From Clostridia bacterium (lineage in GTDB: Bacteria > Bacillota > Clostridia > UMGS1883), in NCBI GenBank assembly GCA_045643845.1, contig JAZRFX010000111.1, forward strand, positions 1 through 27,547: a stretch of DNA of 27,547 bases, given 5' to 3'. The notes beneath the pieces were generated by a model that was not told the DNA's origin, did not search any database, and worked only from the letters and a program-made list of their open reading frames with translations. Positions 11,093 through 19,157 of this stretch are shown in pieces. Every line of letters begins with the position of its first letter. Within the stretch, counting starts at the first letter, position 1. The position numbers and the translations under genes were made by a program.

Positions 11093-11785
11093 TTATTCTG
11101 CCTCTTCAAAACTTGTGGGGCACATTACAAAGAAAACTTTATTGCCTTGACTTCCTGTAACCATTTCGTCTGCAGATGTGCAGATGTTCCATCTGAGGTT
11201 AGCAGATTCTTTTAATGTTGCGATGAAGTCAGCTGCATTTGTGCCATCAGCAAGTGTGAAAACATAGCCAACAAAGGGGATTGTTCCAATCATGGGAGCA
11301 AACATTGCACCTTCGCTGAATCCTTTGATTTCTGCGTTTTCAAAGCCTACGAGATAGCCTTCCTCAACGGGCACTGCGCCACCGCCGAAAACGATTACTT
11401 CGTTAGTGATAAGTGCTTCTGCAATTGAAAGTGCAGATGAAGAATCAGTTGCGCTTTTCTTGAATGCTGAAAGAAGCGTCTGGCCTACTGTCTTGGGTTC
11501 TTCAGGCTTTTCTTCGGGCTTTGTTTCAGGTTTAACCTCAGGTTTTGCTTCGGGTGTTTCCTCGGGCTTAACCTCGGGTTTTGCTTCGGGCTTTTCCTCG
11601 GAAAGCTCCTCTTTTTCTTCTTCTTTTTCCTCTTCTGGTTTTACTTCAGGTTCTTTACCTGCTTCTTCATTTTCAACAACCTCGTTGCCGGAAGGGTTGA
11701 CTGCTTCCTCACTCTTTTTCTCTGTGCAAGCAGCAAGAGAAAAAGCAAGCATAAGTGCTAATATAAGCGAAAGTAATTTTTTCAT
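11093..11785 (-). CDS. Lipoprotein with a Glu/Pro/Lys-rich stalk and a C-terminal globular domain
   Basis: Signal peptide II MKKLLSLILALMLAFSLAA|C, E/K/P low-complexity linker, and a C-terminal domain containing FAPMIGTIPFVGYVF...ANLRWNICTSADE...VFFVMCP. Confidence 0.85.
   Translation of the reverse strand: MKKLLSLILALMLAFSLAACTEKKSEEAVNPSGNEVVENEEAGKEPEVKPEEEKEEEKEELSEEKPEAKPEVKPEETPEAKPEVKPETKPEEKPEEPKTVGQTLLSAFKKSATDSSSALSIAEALITNEVIVFGGGAVPVEEGYLVGFENAEIKGFSEGAMFAPMIGTIPFVGYVFTLADGTNAADFIATLKESANLRWNICTSADEMVTGSQGNKVFFVMCPTSFEEAE
11498..11594 (-). repeat. Degenerate 12-bp tandem repeat encoding (K/T)PE(A/V/E/T) units
   Basis: KPEAKPEVKPEETPEAKPEVKPETKPEEKPEEPK, about 8 units, inside the lipoprotein stalk. 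Confidence 0.75.
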
Positions 11786-12815: not shown

Positions 12816-12850
12816 AAAAAAGAGCAATAGAAAAATTCTATTGCTCTTTT
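12816..12850 (-). terminator. Terminator-like hairpin overlapping the pflA stop codon
   Basis: 15-bp perfect inverted repeat AAAAGAGCAATAGAA-3 nt-TTCTATTGCTCTTTT. One arm encodes the last codons and TAG of pflA. Confidence 0.7.
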
Positions 12851-13590
12851 CTTGTTCTTACTTTTCGGATTCCCTCGAAAATATGTTCCTTTGCCTTAAC
12901 CGCTTTTTCGAAAGGCAGAGCGGGCAAATCTTTAAGAGGGTATTCGATGTTAAGGTCCTTGTATTTGTTTACTCCCATTGTGTGGTAGGGAAGAACATCG
13001 AGCGCGTGAACATTTGAAAGAGAACCGATAAATTCTCCAAGTTTCACAAGATCACTTGCCTCATCAGTAATTCCTTCAACAATAATATGTCGTACCCATA
13101 CGGGAATACCATTTTTTTCAAGGAATTTAGCAAATCCAAGTACCGCCTTGTTGTCGTGCCCCGTAAGGCTTTTGTGCTTTTCGGGATCAATATGCTTTAT
13201 GTCAAGCATAACAAGGTCTGTGTACTTGAGTAAAAGTTCAAGCTTCTTGATATATTCGGGATTTTCATTATAAGTAATGCCCGAAGTATCAATACAGGTG
13301 TGAATATTCTCCTCTTTAGCTTTTTTGAAAAGCTCGGTAAGAAAGTCAATCTGGAGCAAAGGTTCGCCGCCTGTCACAGTGATTCCACCGTCCTTATAAA
13401 AAGGACGGTTTTTATCATACTGCGAAATAATATCATCTACACTTATTTTTGTGCCGATGCCGATTTCCCATGTGTCGGGATTGTGGCAATATGCACAACG
13501 CATAGGACATCCCTGCATAAAGACAACGAATCTTATTCCGGGACCGTCAACCGTGCCGAAGCTTTCAGTAGAGTGTATAAAGCCTGTCAT
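12838..13590 (-). CDS. pflA: Pyruvate formate-lyase activating enzyme (radical SAM)
   Basis: HSTESFGTVDGPGIRFVVFMQGCPMRCAYCHNPDTW (CxxxCxxC), GGITVTGGEP, LPYHTMG. ATG overlaps the upstream TGA (TGATG). Confidence 0.97.
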   Translation of the reverse strand: MTGFIHSTESFGTVDGPGIRFVVFMQGCPMRCAYCHNPDTWEIGIGTKISVDDIISQYDKNRPFYKDGGITVTGGEPLLQIDFLTELFKKAKEENIHTCIDTSGITYNENPEYIKKLELLLKYTDLVMLDIKHIDPEKHKSLTGHDNKAVLGFAKFLEKNGIPVWVRHIIVEGITDEASDLVKLGEFIGSLSNVHALDVLPYHTMGVNKYKDLNIEYPLKDLPALPFEKAVKAKEHIFEGIRKVRTRKEQ

Positions 13591-13832
13591 CAGATGCTGT
13601 CGTGGAAGGTTCTTGAAATAACCTCATCCTGCTGTTCTTTAGTAAGCTTGATAAAGTTTACTGCGTATCCGCTAACTCTTACTGTAAGCTGGGGATATCT
13701 TTCAGGATGCTGCTGAGCATCGAGAAGTGTTTCCTTTGTGAAAACATTTACATTAAGATGATGGCCGCCTTTTTCAACGTAGCCGTCAAGAAGGGTTACC
13801 AAGTTATCAATCTGATTCTGTGTTGCTGCCAT
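13590..13832 (-). CDS. Stand-alone glycyl-radical domain (the C-terminal part of PFL encoded as a separate 80-aa gene; GrcA-like)
   Basis: AAGGAGG RBS 8 nt before ATG. LLDGY...GGHHLNVNV...[17 protein letters not shown]...[11 protein letters not shown]. The radical-bearing Gly is residue 55 (13668-13670). Confidence 0.95.
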
Positions 13833-13866
13833 AATTAGTTCCTCCTTAAAAATTTAATTTTTGAGA

Positions 13867-15966
13867 TTATTCTGCGTCAAGTCCCTCGAAAAGAGTGGGA
13901 GAGGAGCAAGCTCCGTTTGAGCAGTCAAGGTCTACTTCGATGTCGCCTGCGAAGATTCTATCATCCTTACCAAGCGCACCGGGGATAATTGAGAATGTAT
14001 TTGAAATACCATCCTGAGCATCAATGAAGGGAAGCTTTGAAACGCTTGCAAGTGAAGCAACTGCGCCGTGAGTATCTCTTCTGTGCATGGGGTTAGCACC
14101 GGGAGCGAACGCTTCACCCTTCTTACGACCATCAGGAGTAGCACCTGTGTTCTTACCATATACTACGTTAGATGTAATTGTAAGAATTGATGTTGTGGGG
14201 ATACCGTCACGATATGTATGGTTCTTTCTTACATGGTTCATGAATCTGTGAACGATATCGTATGCAATCTGGTCAACGCGGTCGTCGTCGTTACCATATT
14301 TGGGGAAGTCACCTTCAACTTCGTAATCTGTAACGATACCCTGTTCGTTACGGATTGTCTTAACCTTTGCATACTTAATAGCTGAAAGTGAGTCAGCTAC
14401 AACTGAAAGACCTGCGATACCTGTTGCGAACCAACGGGTAACATTCTTATCGTGAAGAGCCATCTGAATCTTTTCGTAGCAGTACTTATCGTGCATGTAA
14501 TGGATTACGTTAAGTGTGTTTACATAAACACCTGCGAGCCACTGCATCATCTGATCGTATTTGCGCATAACTTCATCGTAATCAAGATATTCAGACTTGA
14601 TGGGTGTGTATTCGGGAGCAATCTGCTTACCTGAAATTTCGTCAACACCGCCGTTGATAGCGTAGAGAAGACACTTTGCAAGGTTAGCTCTTGCACCGAA
14701 GAACTGCATTTCCTTACCAACTCTCATTGAAGATACGCAACAAGCGATAGCGTAGTCATCGCCGTGAGTGAATCTCATAACATCATCGTTTTCATACTGA
14801 AGTGATGATGATTCGATTGAAACCCTAGCACAGTAGCGCTTGAAGTTTTCGGGAAGCTTCTTTGACCAAAGAACTGTAAGGTTGGGCTCGGGAGCGGGTC
14901 CGAGGTTTGTAAGTGTGTGAAGGTAACGGTAGCTCATCTTTGTAACCATGTGTCTGCCGTCGATTGCAACACCTGCGATAGATTCAGTAACCCACTGAGG
15001 ATCGCCTGAGAAGAGTGCGTTGTACTCAGGAGTACGAGCAAACTTGATAAGACGGAGCTTCATGATGAAATGGTCAATCATTTCCTGAAGTTCTTTTTCA
15101 GTGAATGTACCGTTCTTAAGGTCACGCTCAGCATAGATGTCAAGGAAGGTAGATGTTCTACCAAGTGACATTGCCGCACCGTTCTGTTCCTTAACAGCTG
15201 CAAGGTAACCAAAGTAGAGCCACTGGATAGCTTCCTTTGTGTTCTTTGCGGGCTTTGAAATATCAAATCCGTAGCTTGCTGCCATCTTCTTGAGATCTTC
15301 AAGAGCACGGAGCTGTTCAGAAAGTTCTTCTCTGAGACGGATGATATGTGAGTACATTGTGCTGCGGGTTGTTTCCTTCTGCTCAGCCTTGTCCTTGATA
15401 AGGAAATCAACGCCGTAGAGAGCAACTCTTCTGTAGTCGCCGATGATTCTACCACGACCGTAAGCGTCGGGAAGACCTGTGATGATGTGGCTTGAACGAC
15501 AAGCTCTCATTTCAGGAGTGTAAGCATCAAATACACCTGCGTTATGAGTCTTTCTATGTGTTTCGAAAAATTCCTTTACAGCAGGGTCGATTGTATAACC
15601 GTTATCAGCACAAGCTTTTTCAGCCATACGGATACCACCATAGGGCATAAGAGCACGCTTGAGAGGCTTGTCTGTCTGGAAGCCTACGATCTGTTCCTTG
15701 TCCTTGTCAAGGTATGCAGGACCGTGTGAAGTGATTGTTGAAATGATGCTTGTGTCCATATCGAGAACACCGCCGGCTTCACGCTCCTGCTTTGAAAGTT
15801 CGAGAACCTGTTCCCAAAGATCAAGTGTGTTCTGAGTGGGAGATTCAAGGAAACTTTCATCTCCGTCGTAAGGTGTGTAATTGTGCTTGATAAAGCTTCT
15901 TACATTAACCTCTTTTGTCCAGGTTCCGCCTTCGAAACCTTCCCAAAATTCAGAATTAGTGTACAT
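13867..15966 (-). CDS. pflB: Pyruvate formate-lyase catalytic barrel lacking the glycyl-radical domain, with a 30-aa non-homologous tail
   Basis: [40 protein letters not shown] (Cys-Cys at 14737-14742), [27 protein letters not shown], then a divergent tail and TAA. The AGAGGG RBS favours ATG 15966 over GTG 15984. Confidence 0.95.
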
Positions 15967-16065: not shown

Positions 16066-16094
16066 ATTATAACATATTAATTTAATTAAGTAAA
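16066..16094 (-). promoter_or_regulatory. sigmaA-type promoter of the pfl operon
   Basis: TTTACT-17 bp-TATAAT with TGn, preceded by an AT-rich, UP-element-like tract (16095-16140). Confidence 0.7.
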
Positions 16095-16141: not shown

Positions 16142-17125
16142 TTAAACAAGAGGTTTTTCTATTATTTTTTCAACGAATAAAGCGGTGCTTAAAAGGTCGT
16201 TTTTATCAATGATTTCACTCGGACTGTGAATGTATCTTGTGGGGATTGAAATTGTTCCCGCAGGAATACCGCTTCCCGTCAGATGAATAGCCCCTGTATC
16301 AGTCCCGCCGAAGCTTGCCGCTTCAAGCTGGAAGGGGATAGAATTTTCCTTCGCTACATTAAGAAGCAAGTTTTTTACATCTTCGTGGATGATAAATGAC
16401 GCGTCTTTTATCTTTATCGCAGGACCTTTTCCGAGAGCAAGATTAAGCTCCATAGATTCAGGAGTATCACCGACATTTGAAACATCAACGGCGATAGCAA
16501 TATCGGGGTTTATCAGCGCTGCGGCAGTTTTGGCACCGCGGCAACCGACTTCCTCCTGAACTGTGAATACTGCGTAAACATCGTTGGGAGTTTCTTTTGC
16601 ATTTTTCATCGCGCGGATAAGTGCCCAGCAGCCTGCTCTGTCATCGAGTGCTTTTGCCATAATTTTGTTTCCCATAACGGCAAAATTACTGCTGTAAGAA
16701 GCCATATCTCCGATTTGTACTCTTTTTTCAGCATCTTCTTTGCTTTCAGCACCGATATCCATATACATTTTTTCAAAACCGACAGTAGAGGGGTTTTCCT
16801 TGTTTTCGTAGGAGATTTTACCCTTTTCACCGTTTGTAAATTCTACTGTGCTGTTGATACTGTTATACTTTAAAATTCCGCCGATAGTAGAAAAACGGAG
16901 GAATCCGTTATCGTCGATATAATTAACCATAAAGCCAATCTCGTCCATATGTGCCGCAAGCATCAGCTTTTTGCCGTTTCCTTTTTTGTGGCATATAAGA
17001 TTTCCGAGAGTGTCGGTATAAATTTCGTCGCAAAAATCCTTTAATTCTTCGCGGATTATATCGGTTATGGCACTTTCTCTGCCTGACGGAGAAACGCACA
17101 TAGTAAGTTTTTCTAAAAGTTTCAT
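16142..17125 (-). CDS. M42 family metallo-aminopeptidase (TET-like), paralog 3
   Basis: AAHMDEIG, ALDDRAG, VQEEVG, AVDVS, GGTDTG, RYIHSP. ATGA overlap with the upstream paralog. Confidence 0.92.
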   Translation of the reverse strand: MKLLEKLTMCVSPSGRESAITDIIREELKDFCDEIYTDTLGNLICHKKGNGKKLMLAAHMDEIGFMVNYIDDNGFLRFSTIGGILKYNSINSTVEFTNGEKGKISYENKENPSTVGFEKMYMDIGAESKEDAEKRVQIGDMASYSSNFAVMGNKIMAKALDDRAGCWALIRAMKNAKETPNDVYAVFTVQEEVGCRGAKTAAALINPDIAIAVDVSNVGDTPESMELNLALGKGPAIKIKDASFIIHEDVKNLLLNVAKENSIPFQLEAASFGGTDTGAIHLTGSGIPAGTISIPTRYIHSPSEIIDKNDLLSTALFVEKIIEKPLV

Positions 17126-18132
17126 ATCAGATTGCTCCTTTCAATGCCTTTTAAAACAGCTTTTGAAAGCTTGTAAACACTTTCCGCATCATCGGAATTC
17201 ATAACGCTGACAGGGGAGTGTATATATCTGCACGGGACGGCAAGAACGGCAGTTTTTACCCCGCATCCGCTACGCTGAATAACACCTGCATCGGTACCGC
17301 CCATTGTGGTCTTTTTTATTTGCAGTTTTATACCATTATCTTCAGCGGTTTTCATAATAAAATCGTAGTAGTTTTTATCGGAAATTGCCGCACCGTCAAC
17401 GGCGGTCATTACAGCTCCGCCTCCAAGATTAGTTACCTGATTATGAGGCTTGCTTCCGTAAACATCCGAGCAGGTAGTACCCTCAATAACGAGCGCTATA
17501 TCGGGCTTTATTCTTTCGGCAACAATTCTTGCGCCTCGACAACCGACCTCCTCCTGAACTGTGAAGCAAAAATACATATCACTATCGTACTTTTCCTTCA
17601 TAAGTTCAAGCATAATTGCACAGCCTACTCTGTCATCGAGCGCCTTGCTCTTGACAAGGTTATCGCCGAATTCGATATATTCGCCGTCAAATACGGCATA
17701 GTCGCCGAGTGATACAATTTTTTCGGCGCTTTCTTTATCACTTGCACCGATGTCGATATATAAATCCTTGATTTTAACGGGGGAATTCGCTTCGTCTTCC
17801 TTCTGAAGATGAATAGCCTTTGTACTGATGATTCCGGGGATTTTATCGTTGCCGATCAAAACTTTTTTACTGTTTAAAACGGCAGTCATAATTCCGCCAA
17901 GAGATTCAAAACGCAAGAAGCCTTCGTCTGTGATATTTGTTATTATAAAGCCGACTTCATCCATATGAGCCGCAACCATAACCTTTTTGCCGTTTCCTTT
18001 TTTGTGGCAAATGAGATTGCCCATTGAATCGGTAAATATCTCGTCACAAATTGCGTGCGCTCTTATAAAATCACGCACTTCATCTTCGAATCCTGAAGGG
18101 CCGTTGAGTGAAGTTAATTCTTTTACCAACAC
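17122..18132 (-). CDS. M42 family metallo-aminopeptidase (TET-like), paralog 2
   Basis: AAHMDEVG, ALDDRVG, VQEEVG, VIEGTT, GGTDAG, RYIHSP. GTG 18132 fits RBS spacing better than ATG 18138; either start overlaps the upstream stop. Confidence 0.92.
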   Translation of the reverse strand: MLVKELTSLNGPSGFEDEVRDFIRAHAICDEIFTDSMGNLICHKKGNGKKVMVAAHMDEVGFIITNITDEGFLRFESLGGIMTAVLNSKKVLIGNDKIPGIISTKAIHLQKEDEANSPVKIKDLYIDIGASDKESAEKIVSLGDYAVFDGEYIEFGDNLVKSKALDDRVGCAIMLELMKEKYDSDMYFCFTVQEEVGCRGARIVAERIKPDIALVIEGTTCSDVYGSKPHNQVTNLGGGAVMTAVDGAAISDKNYYDFIMKTAEDNGIKLQIKKTTMGGTDAGVIQRSGCGVKTAVLAVPCRYIHSPVSVMNSDDAESVYKLSKAVLKGIERSNLI

Positions 18133-19157
18133 AGGCATTCACCCTCTTTCAAAGCTTTTGCAAACGAGCAAATAATTTTTGCAGCATTTTCTAAATCATC
18201 AGAGTCGGCAACTTCAAAATTGCCGTGCATATATCGTACGGGAACGCTTAAAAGTGCAGTGGGAATACCTTCGCCCGAAACCTGGATTTCCCACGCGTCG
18301 GTACCTGTGTTTCCGGAGCATACTTCAAGCTGAAAATCAATATTGTCACGCTTTGCAAGAGAAATTATTTCGCGTGTCATTTTAGAATGGAGATTAGGCC
18401 CGATTGTAATAACAGGACCCTTTCCGCAGGGGTAGGCATCCTCCGATACTCCCGGACTTGTTCCGTGGCACACATCGAGCGCAATAGCACACGAAGGCTT
18501 GGCAGTAAAAACCGAAGTTCTTGCACCGCGAAGACCTACTTCCTCCTGAACTGTTGCAACGGCAATAATATCATTTTCAATCTTTTTATCTTTAAGAAGA
18601 TCAAGCGTTCTTAAAATAACTGCAAGTCCTCCGCGGTCATCAAGGCAACGCGAAGCAACCTTGTTTTCGCAAAGTTTCGTAAATCCCGTATTGAAAGTGA
18701 CTATGTCCCCGATTGAAACCTTTTGCTCGGTAACTTCTTTTGAAAAACCTATATCAACACACAACTCGTCAAGCTTTACCGCCTTGGAGCTGTCGGTGAT
18801 AAGGTGGGGAGGCTTGAAACCGATCACGCCGAAAAGCTTTTCCTTTCCCCAGACTGTGACCTCGGTTCCAGGAAGAATTTTAGCGTCAATTCCGCCTATC
18901 GGAATGAATTTAAGGCTACCTTCATCCGTGATTCCGCTCACCATAAGACCAAGCTCGTCCATATGTGCCTCAATCATAAGAGATGGGGCAGAGGTGTTAG
19001 TTCCTTTTTTTACTCCGAAAACATTTCCGAGGTTGTCAGTTTTAAATTCATCGCAAAAGTCGGAAAAGAGCTTTTTTACGCATTCGCGGACATTTTTTTC
19101 GTGACCGCTTACGCCAAATTCACCATCTAAAATTTTTAAATATTCTGAAGCTGTCAT
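18123..19157 (-). CDS. M42 family metallo-aminopeptidase (TET-like), paralog 1
   Basis: EAHMDELG, CLDDRGG, VQEEVG, ALDVCH, TGTDAW, RYMHG. Confidence 0.92.
   Translation of the reverse strand: MTASEYLKILDGEFGVSGHEKNVRECVKKLFSDFCDEFKTDNLGNVFGVKKGTNTSAPSLMIEAHMDELGLMVSGITDEGSLKFIPIGGIDAKILPGTEVTVWGKEKLFGVIGFKPPHLITDSSKAVKLDELCVDIGFSKEVTEQKVSIGDIVTFNTGFTKLCENKVASRCLDDRGGLAVILRTLDLLKDKKIENDIIAVATVQEEVGLRGARTSVFTAKPSCAIALDVCHGTSPGVSEDAYPCGKGPVITIGPNLHSKMTREIISLAKRDNIDFQLEVCSGNTGTDAWEIQVSGEGIPTALLSVPVRYMHGNFEVADSDDLENAAKIICSFAKALKEGECLCW

Follow-up and report, generated by a model that had tools for sequence, protein, structure and literature searches.

The window analysed here is a whole stretch of 27,547 nucleotides (nt) from a Clostridia bacterium (assembly GCA_045643845.1, contig JAZRFX010000111.1), and the genome that it belongs to is a metagenome-assembled genome (MAG) of 1.58 Mb in 349 contigs that is 86.5% complete. 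The minus strand of the window carries an operon for pyruvate formate-lyase (PFL) in which the catalytic body and the glycyl-radical domain are found on two separate genes, which are followed by pflA, the gene of the activating enzyme (Table 1). This two-gene PFL is real, is under selection and is common to many related species; the databases label its pieces, and no paper that describes it was found. A working PFL is probably formed from the two polypeptides of this one operon, a reading to which a probability of roughly 85% can be given. It is based on the tiling of the two chains along one PFL, scores above the GrcA3 and PflA cut-offs, the pair being the sole PFL found, the conservation of the layout, low ratios of nonsynonymous to synonymous substitution (dN/dS), and the separate initiation of the two chains.

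The large open reading frame (ORF) features the IACCVSS motif with Cys409 and Cys410, and the RVSGY motif is absent from it and is located on the next ORF, so that the large ORF does not qualify as a single-chain PFL, which has RVSGY on the same polypeptide. The small ORF features HHLNVNV, then RVSGY, and then RTF, and in the window it is one base out of frame relative to the large ORF. Each of the two has its own ribosome-binding site, AGAGGGA preceding the ATG of the large gene and AAGGAGG sitting 8 nt ahead of the ATG of the small gene, and the TGA of the small gene and the ATG of pflA overlap as TGATG. A sequence-only reading of this DNA had described a large gene that keeps the IACCVS cysteines and stops before RVSGY, on which the ORF and profile readings agree, and a 34-bp spacer with an AAGGAGG site, a small gene and a TGATG overlap with pflA, all of which are found again by direct reading of the sequence.

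Table 1. Features of the two-gene PFL operon and its borders in the window.
Feature	Position	Strand	Basis and remarks
Large subunit, PFL catalytic body, 699 amino acids (aa)	13867-15966	minus	ATG at 15966, stop TAA; TIGR01255, Pfam PFL-like
Conserved 30-aa C-terminal tail of the large subunit	13870-13959	minus	acidic alternating segment, then Cys motif
AT-rich spacer, 34 nt	13833-13866	minus	Shine-Dalgarno AAGGAGG at 13841-13847; direct read
Small subunit, 80-aa glycyl-radical protein	13590-13832	minus	NF038360 GrcA3; predicted radical site Gly55 in RVSGY
pflA, PFL-activating radical SAM enzyme, 250 aa	12838-13590	minus	TIGR02493; Radical_SAM and Fer4_12 domains
Promoter-like site TTTACT, 17 nt, TG-TATAAT, upstream of the large gene	16066-16094	minus	consensus scan, pattern match only
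15-bp palindromic hairpin at the end of pflA	12818-12850	unassigned (.)	terminator-like scan, pattern match only

The two proteins tile one PFL. The large protein matches TIGR01255 with 1114.2 bits over model positions 2-664 of 744 (cut-off 994.2), passing this equivalog cut-off without its PFL C-terminus, and the small protein spans positions 664-743 of the same model. The Pfam Gly_radical model is divided in a similar manner, with positions 1-50 on the large protein and 49-106 on the small protein, and the Pfam PFL-like match of the large protein reaches 748 bits. In the numbering of E. coli PflB (PDB 1h16), residues 7-672 of the large protein align with 10-681 and residues 9-79 of the small protein align with 683-758; Cys409/Cys410 are the equivalents of C418/C419 and Gly55 of the small protein is the equivalent of G734. 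The Cys409/Cys410 pair is invariant across 32 aligned split and fused relatives. The alignments put the break at 681/683, which is where the sequence-only reading had placed it (near residue ~680). The same reading held that the parts tile one PFL with essentially no gap; the profile coordinates bear out the tiling, and the second half of the statement has to be given up for the 30 extra conserved residues on the large chain.

The small protein belongs to NCBIfam NF038360 (GrcA3), with 167.3 bits over positions 2-78 of 78 and a cut-off of 158. It is not a member of the GrcA model TIGR04365 (91 bits, cut-off 170, matching only positions 67-125) or of the GrcA2 model NF008341 (103.3 bits, cut-off 145), and it aligns with residues 68-126 of E. 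coli GrcA. The product of pflA scores 300.6 bits against TIGR02493 (cut-off 231.75), and its CPMRCAYC sequence fits the CxxxCxxC motif of radical SAM enzymes. The fold was tested with AlphaFold2 on a relative, G017, that was read through in frame with its TAA read as Gly and modelled with a 32-row alignment. The resulting pseudo-fusion features the canonical PFL fold and normal radical-domain topology with a predicted template-modelling score (pTM) of 0.84, and its comparison with 2pfl gave TM 0.88/0.91 over 793 columns.

A break of this kind could in principle stem from faulty assembly, or mark a one-piece pflB that recently became a pseudogene through a frameshift or nonsense mutation, and the fragmented state of the MAG speaks for such an origin. 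The sequence-only reading had proposed that coverage be checked across the junction (13830-13970), and Logan contigs from gut metagenome runs of separate studies were found to cross it without insertion or deletion, so that no assembly artefact is seen. The contig of run X1 spans 13605-14011 and the contig of run X2 spans 13769-13919, the latter with zero differences; X1 or X2 may be the source sample of the window, and one independent run is counted. The identical layout is present in ~100 independent assemblies, and ~130 nt are inserted rather than a single base being changed. The dN/dS values were determined as the median of pairwise Nei-Gojobori estimates over 11 split loci, with synonymous differences near saturation (pS 0.6-0.7), and are 0.049 for the last 300 pre-tail codons of the body, 0.075 for the 30-aa tail, and 0.046 for the small gene. 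The body, the tail and the small gene are all under purifying selection, and selection on the tail and the small gene argues against a pseudogene. Because the layout is conserved, the artefact or pseudogene explanation is already refuted, and the chance that it applies is negligible.

The two ORFs could also be joined into one chain by stop-codon read-through, by frameshifting, or by protein splicing, and the shared frame in four of the 12 split loci examined is in favour of this. However, all three frame relations occur among these close relatives, and in the window the two ORFs are shifted by one base. In 11 of the 12 loci a spacer of 16-43 nt separates the genes, and in the twelfth (G020) they abut or overlap; some spacers contain further stops, and a Shine-Dalgarno-like GGAGG or GGGGG is found in 11 spacers (11/12 loci, window included). 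Since the spacer length and the frame vary and a ribosome-binding site is usual, the chains are initiated separately and not by read-through or frameshifting. Protein splicing is further opposed by the lack of any intein-like sequence; the tail is 30 aa long, and in the small protein the match to PFL is preceded by only 8 residues. A joined chain is therefore highly improbable. The small gene overlaps pflA in 7 of the 12 loci, including the window.

A stand-alone small gene above the GrcA3 cut-off is present in 13 of 41 related genomes, the genome of the window included, and a truncated body lies directly upstream of it in the 12 split loci examined; the body of G007 is broken over two contigs. 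The remaining related genomes contain a one-piece PFL of ~742-753 aa, and a split and a fused PFL that are both full length occur together in none of the 41. An even draw of 401 genomes from the class gave 19 above the GrcA3 cut-off and 3 short stand-alone frames just below it, so that ~22 of the 401 (~5%) are split, and these belong to at least 11 GTDB families. A scan in which each species was represented by one genome yielded at least 595 relatives, and 78 of the best 80 loci, which are those examined, are split. The synteny of short pflB, 80-aa gene and pflA, which the sequence-only reading had suggested searching for, is conserved in many related genomes.

The carriers are mostly gut and rumen anaerobes, and their records are labelled Oscillospiraceae, Acutalibacteraceae, Lachnospiraceae, Ruminococcus, Blautia, Dorea, and others, with one Spirochaetales MAG; two cultured isolates, Sellimonas caecigallum JCM 35759 and Ruminococcus sp. 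210702-SL.1.03, are among them. The former (locus L118) has the two genes and a Cys tail of another type, and the latter (L105) has three genes. Protein searches return many 80-aa and ~699-aa relatives at >90% identity, which NCBI names 'autonomous glycyl radical cofactor GrcA' and 'formate C-acetyltransferase', respectively. GrcA2 (NF008341) was searched for in 301 genomes of the phylum with no match, and the control genomes gave no match either. Two database matches, P0136 and P0001, were considered as fused intermediates and were rejected as assembly artefacts with internal duplication.

The NCBI name of the small relatives agrees with a further explanation, in which the small protein is an accessory spare part for another full-length glycyl radical enzyme and the truncated PflB is an inactive or differently used remnant. 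The genome does have other glycyl radical enzymes (Gly_radical matches on contigs C143, C102 and C333); however, these are longer, different enzymes, each with a radical domain built in. Purifying selection on the truncated body is strong (dN/dS 0.049), and this body exceeds the PFL equivalog cut-off even though its C-terminus is missing. Its gene and the small gene always lie side by side, and a fused PFL is found in no split genome searched. A spare part of the GrcA kind coexists with a full-length PFL, and none was found in the MAG or in the 12 other split genomes among the relatives. The sequence-only reading had proposed to check this genome for a full-length pflB; the search of the 86.5%-complete MAG gave no other PFL-level match, and the split enzyme is the only PFL found in it. 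The spare-part explanation is accordingly very improbable.

In E. coli, GrcA that has been charged with the radical by PflA restores the activity of PflB that was cleaved by O2, and residues 696-733 are the recognition element for GrcA. The pair in the window is similar to E. coli PflB with GrcA/YfiD (PDB 1h16, 6owr) and to phage T4 Y06I in that a small RVSGY radical protein is combined with a PFL body. It differs from the E. coli system, in which a full-length PflB exists and GrcA, encoded elsewhere, serves as its back-up; no full-length PFL was found here. The 80-aa protein also differs from E. coli GrcA, which features a 60-residue disordered N-terminus, by lacking this disordered half and having instead a helix equivalent to PflB 683-692. 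Published work has determined that a small, PflA-activated RVSGY protein can give its radical in trans to a PFL body without a working radical domain (PMC8683613, PMC12338860), and that GrcA restores formate production in vivo to a strain with full-length PflB G734A (PMC12338860). The closest engineered counterpart is tPFL(1-695) with YfiD or truncYfiD(61-127), studied by Andorfer et al. 2021 (PMC8683613), in which PFL is cut just before the ~67-aa radical domain; once activated, the engineered tPFL(1-695):YfiD is as active as wild type (PMC8683613). The natural cut differs in being ~13 residues further upstream, which leaves one more helix on the small subunit, and the natural body additionally carries the conserved 30-aa tail. 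The NF038360 GrcA3 model (78 positions, curated, type 'exception'), of which the small protein is a member, is named as a spare part and is silent on the truncated partner, on obligate pairing, and on the tail.

By analogy with the E. coli GrcA work, from which docking and radical transfer in trans are inferred, PflA would install the radical on Gly55 of the small protein, which would dock in the body at the place that residues 683-759 occupy in E. coli PflB. The radical would then move from Gly55 to the Cys409/Cys410 pair.

Several points weigh against a working enzyme of two chains. YfiD binding to the engineered 1-695 body is undetectable and activation is 32-fold lower (PMC8683613). Because the engineered pair binds and is activated poorly, efficient natural assembly must rest on further features, and the upstream cut with its extra helix, together with the tail, could repair the weak assembly of the engineered construct. 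The tail and linker of the G017 pseudo-fusion (residues 669-711) have predicted local distance difference test (pLDDT) values <30 and are not confidently modelled. The one metatranscriptome has contigs on pflB and pflA and none over the junction or most of the small gene, so the support from RNA is weak. A fused PFL could conceivably lie on DNA that is missing from the 86.5%-complete MAG. Finally, the conversion of pyruvate and CoA to acetyl-CoA and formate, the complex, and the radical are predicted for this family from its sequences.

The 30 residues after GKDD in the large chain are of a near-unchanged type in 48 of 104 split loci, and the tail is a conserved module and not filler. Its first part is the acidic alternating segment, x-F-x-G-D-hydrophobic-acidic-hydrophobic-acidic, which comes directly after GK[DE]D in most of the tailed split bodies, and its second part is the Cys motif D-C-x2-3-G-A-C-x2-P-T-L-F-E-G-L-D. 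In variant lineages the acidic segment closes the body, and the gap of 190-300 nt that follows contains a third ORF of 57-77 aa (loci L105, L108, L122, L126, L127, L130, L133, L141, L143, L061, L065, and L073). By hhalign, the C-terminal end of this third ORF aligns with the Cys motif of the tail (P 7e-7, probability 92%) and its N-terminal part with the opening helix and strand of the radical domain (P 2.7e-5, probability 74%); the ORF is without the radical glycine. A few lineages are tail-less, with a body that ends in ...SLGKDD; since some lineages are without the tail entirely, a split does not require the Cys motif. The acidic segment was also considered as a decayed copy of the radical-domain strand GGHHLNVNV, which was rejected with a P of 0.34 when 48 tails were compared with 109 small subunits by hhalign.

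A quick tree of 124 body sequences (short search, partial sequences, midpoint root) places the tail type of the window in one well-supported clade. As the lineages that surround this clade have acid tails, and the third ORF is encoded in many of them, an origin of the window's tail type by fusion of the end of the third ORF onto the body fits the tree. The body tree needs five split/fused changes and so lends no support to one single origin of the split. Four one-piece PFL genes (L071, L072, L124 and L157) are placed inside a mainly split clade, which suggests re-fusion of split genes, and a second split event is suggested by the tail-less split forms, which cluster with other fused genes. With fused genes in the split clade and tail-less forms among the fused ones, more than one split or re-fusion event is likely. 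As a separate observation, the genomes of one GTDB genus (G001-G024) differ widely in their PFL, which falls into two fused lineages and one split lineage, a pattern indicative of operon replacement through horizontal transfer inside this group.

The use of the layout is a more tentative matter than its existence. The two chains may form an obligate heteromer with an exchangeable 80-aa radical subunit, in which the tail would be a third element with the task of recruiting, retaining or gating the radical subunit, or of sensing redox state; this proposal is put forward with less than even confidence. The same reserve is appropriate for the related idea that a free module makes the O2-sensitive part cheap to replace or easier to activate and that the acidic/Cys tail helps to hold or recognise the small subunit. 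The role of the tail as a recognition element is a hypothesis modelled on E. coli residues 696-733. It is plausible, judging from the E. coli analogy, that limiting O2 damage to a replaceable 80-aa subunit is the reason for the layout; easier access of the activase to the free domain, or control of activity via the small subunit, fits equally well.

A layout that serves regulation or activation of a working two-piece enzyme, and not O2 repair, is a possibility that is likewise given less than even odds. PflA could act on the free domain without opening the barrel, the supply and turnover of the small subunit could set activity, or the Cys tail could be a redox or metal switch. This agrees with carriers that are mostly gut and rumen anaerobes, with the coupling of the small gene to pflA, and with the conserved Cys motif at the junction and the separate radical-domain-related protein in some lineages. 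A Cys switch is opposed by the lineages that have no tail, in which the split exists without the motif, and the data here do not tell regulation and repair apart.

The closest solved structures to the large subunit are PDB 38la (687-aa chain) and 38lb (739-aa chain), both 'Formate acetyltransferase', with 1109 and 1147 bits. The 38la chain ends in ...LGKED, which is the exact point where PFL homology stops in the large subunit, and 38lb runs on into a Cys-containing tail (ALGKSGNVMFGECDMCEMK...); the tails of 38la and 38lb differ from that of the window. No small-subunit chain of 38la or 38lb was found among the PDB chains searched. Because neither entry is in a PDB copy ending 2026-04-08, it looks as if short PFL bodies of this kind have recently been solved. 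No description of a natural split PFL was found in the paper library searched, and the name GrcA3 was found in no paper there; in a June 2026 review of glycyl radical enzymes, YfiD of E. coli is the one spare part discussed (PMC13450708). The sequence-only reading had been unsure how far the layout was already annotated: the small protein does have a model of its own, GrcA3, and the two-gene layout is named in no paper that was found.

The value of the window itself is limited, the layout being common, modelled by NCBIfam, and apparently under structural study. What the GrcA field built by hand as truncated constructs has its evolutionary counterpart in this natural and widespread form with two chains, and the separable parts of the latter allow the docking of the radical domain, the access of the activase, and the recovery after O2 to be studied. 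The labels 'formate C-acetyltransferase' and 'spare part' hide that neither chain likely works alone. If the proposal of an exchangeable radical subunit with the tail as third element is true, a very common gut fermentation enzyme would have an undescribed subunit architecture and an undescribed cycle of repair or control.

At the borders of the operon, the promoter-like site upstream of the large gene has 10 of 12 consensus matches, and shuffled sequence held more such sites than the region; the hairpin at the end of pflA is likely the operon terminator, judged by its pattern. Further along the window, 11093-11785 (minus) encodes a predicted lipoprotein of 230 aa without a real family match, which features a signal peptide with Cys and a long Glu/Lys/Pro-rich repeat of KPEV/KPEE units. 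Directly upstream of the PFL operon (16142-19157, minus) are three tandem paralogous genes for M42-family aminopeptidases of 327, 338 and 344 aa, with overlaps of 4 nt between the first and second gene and of 16 nt between the second and third.

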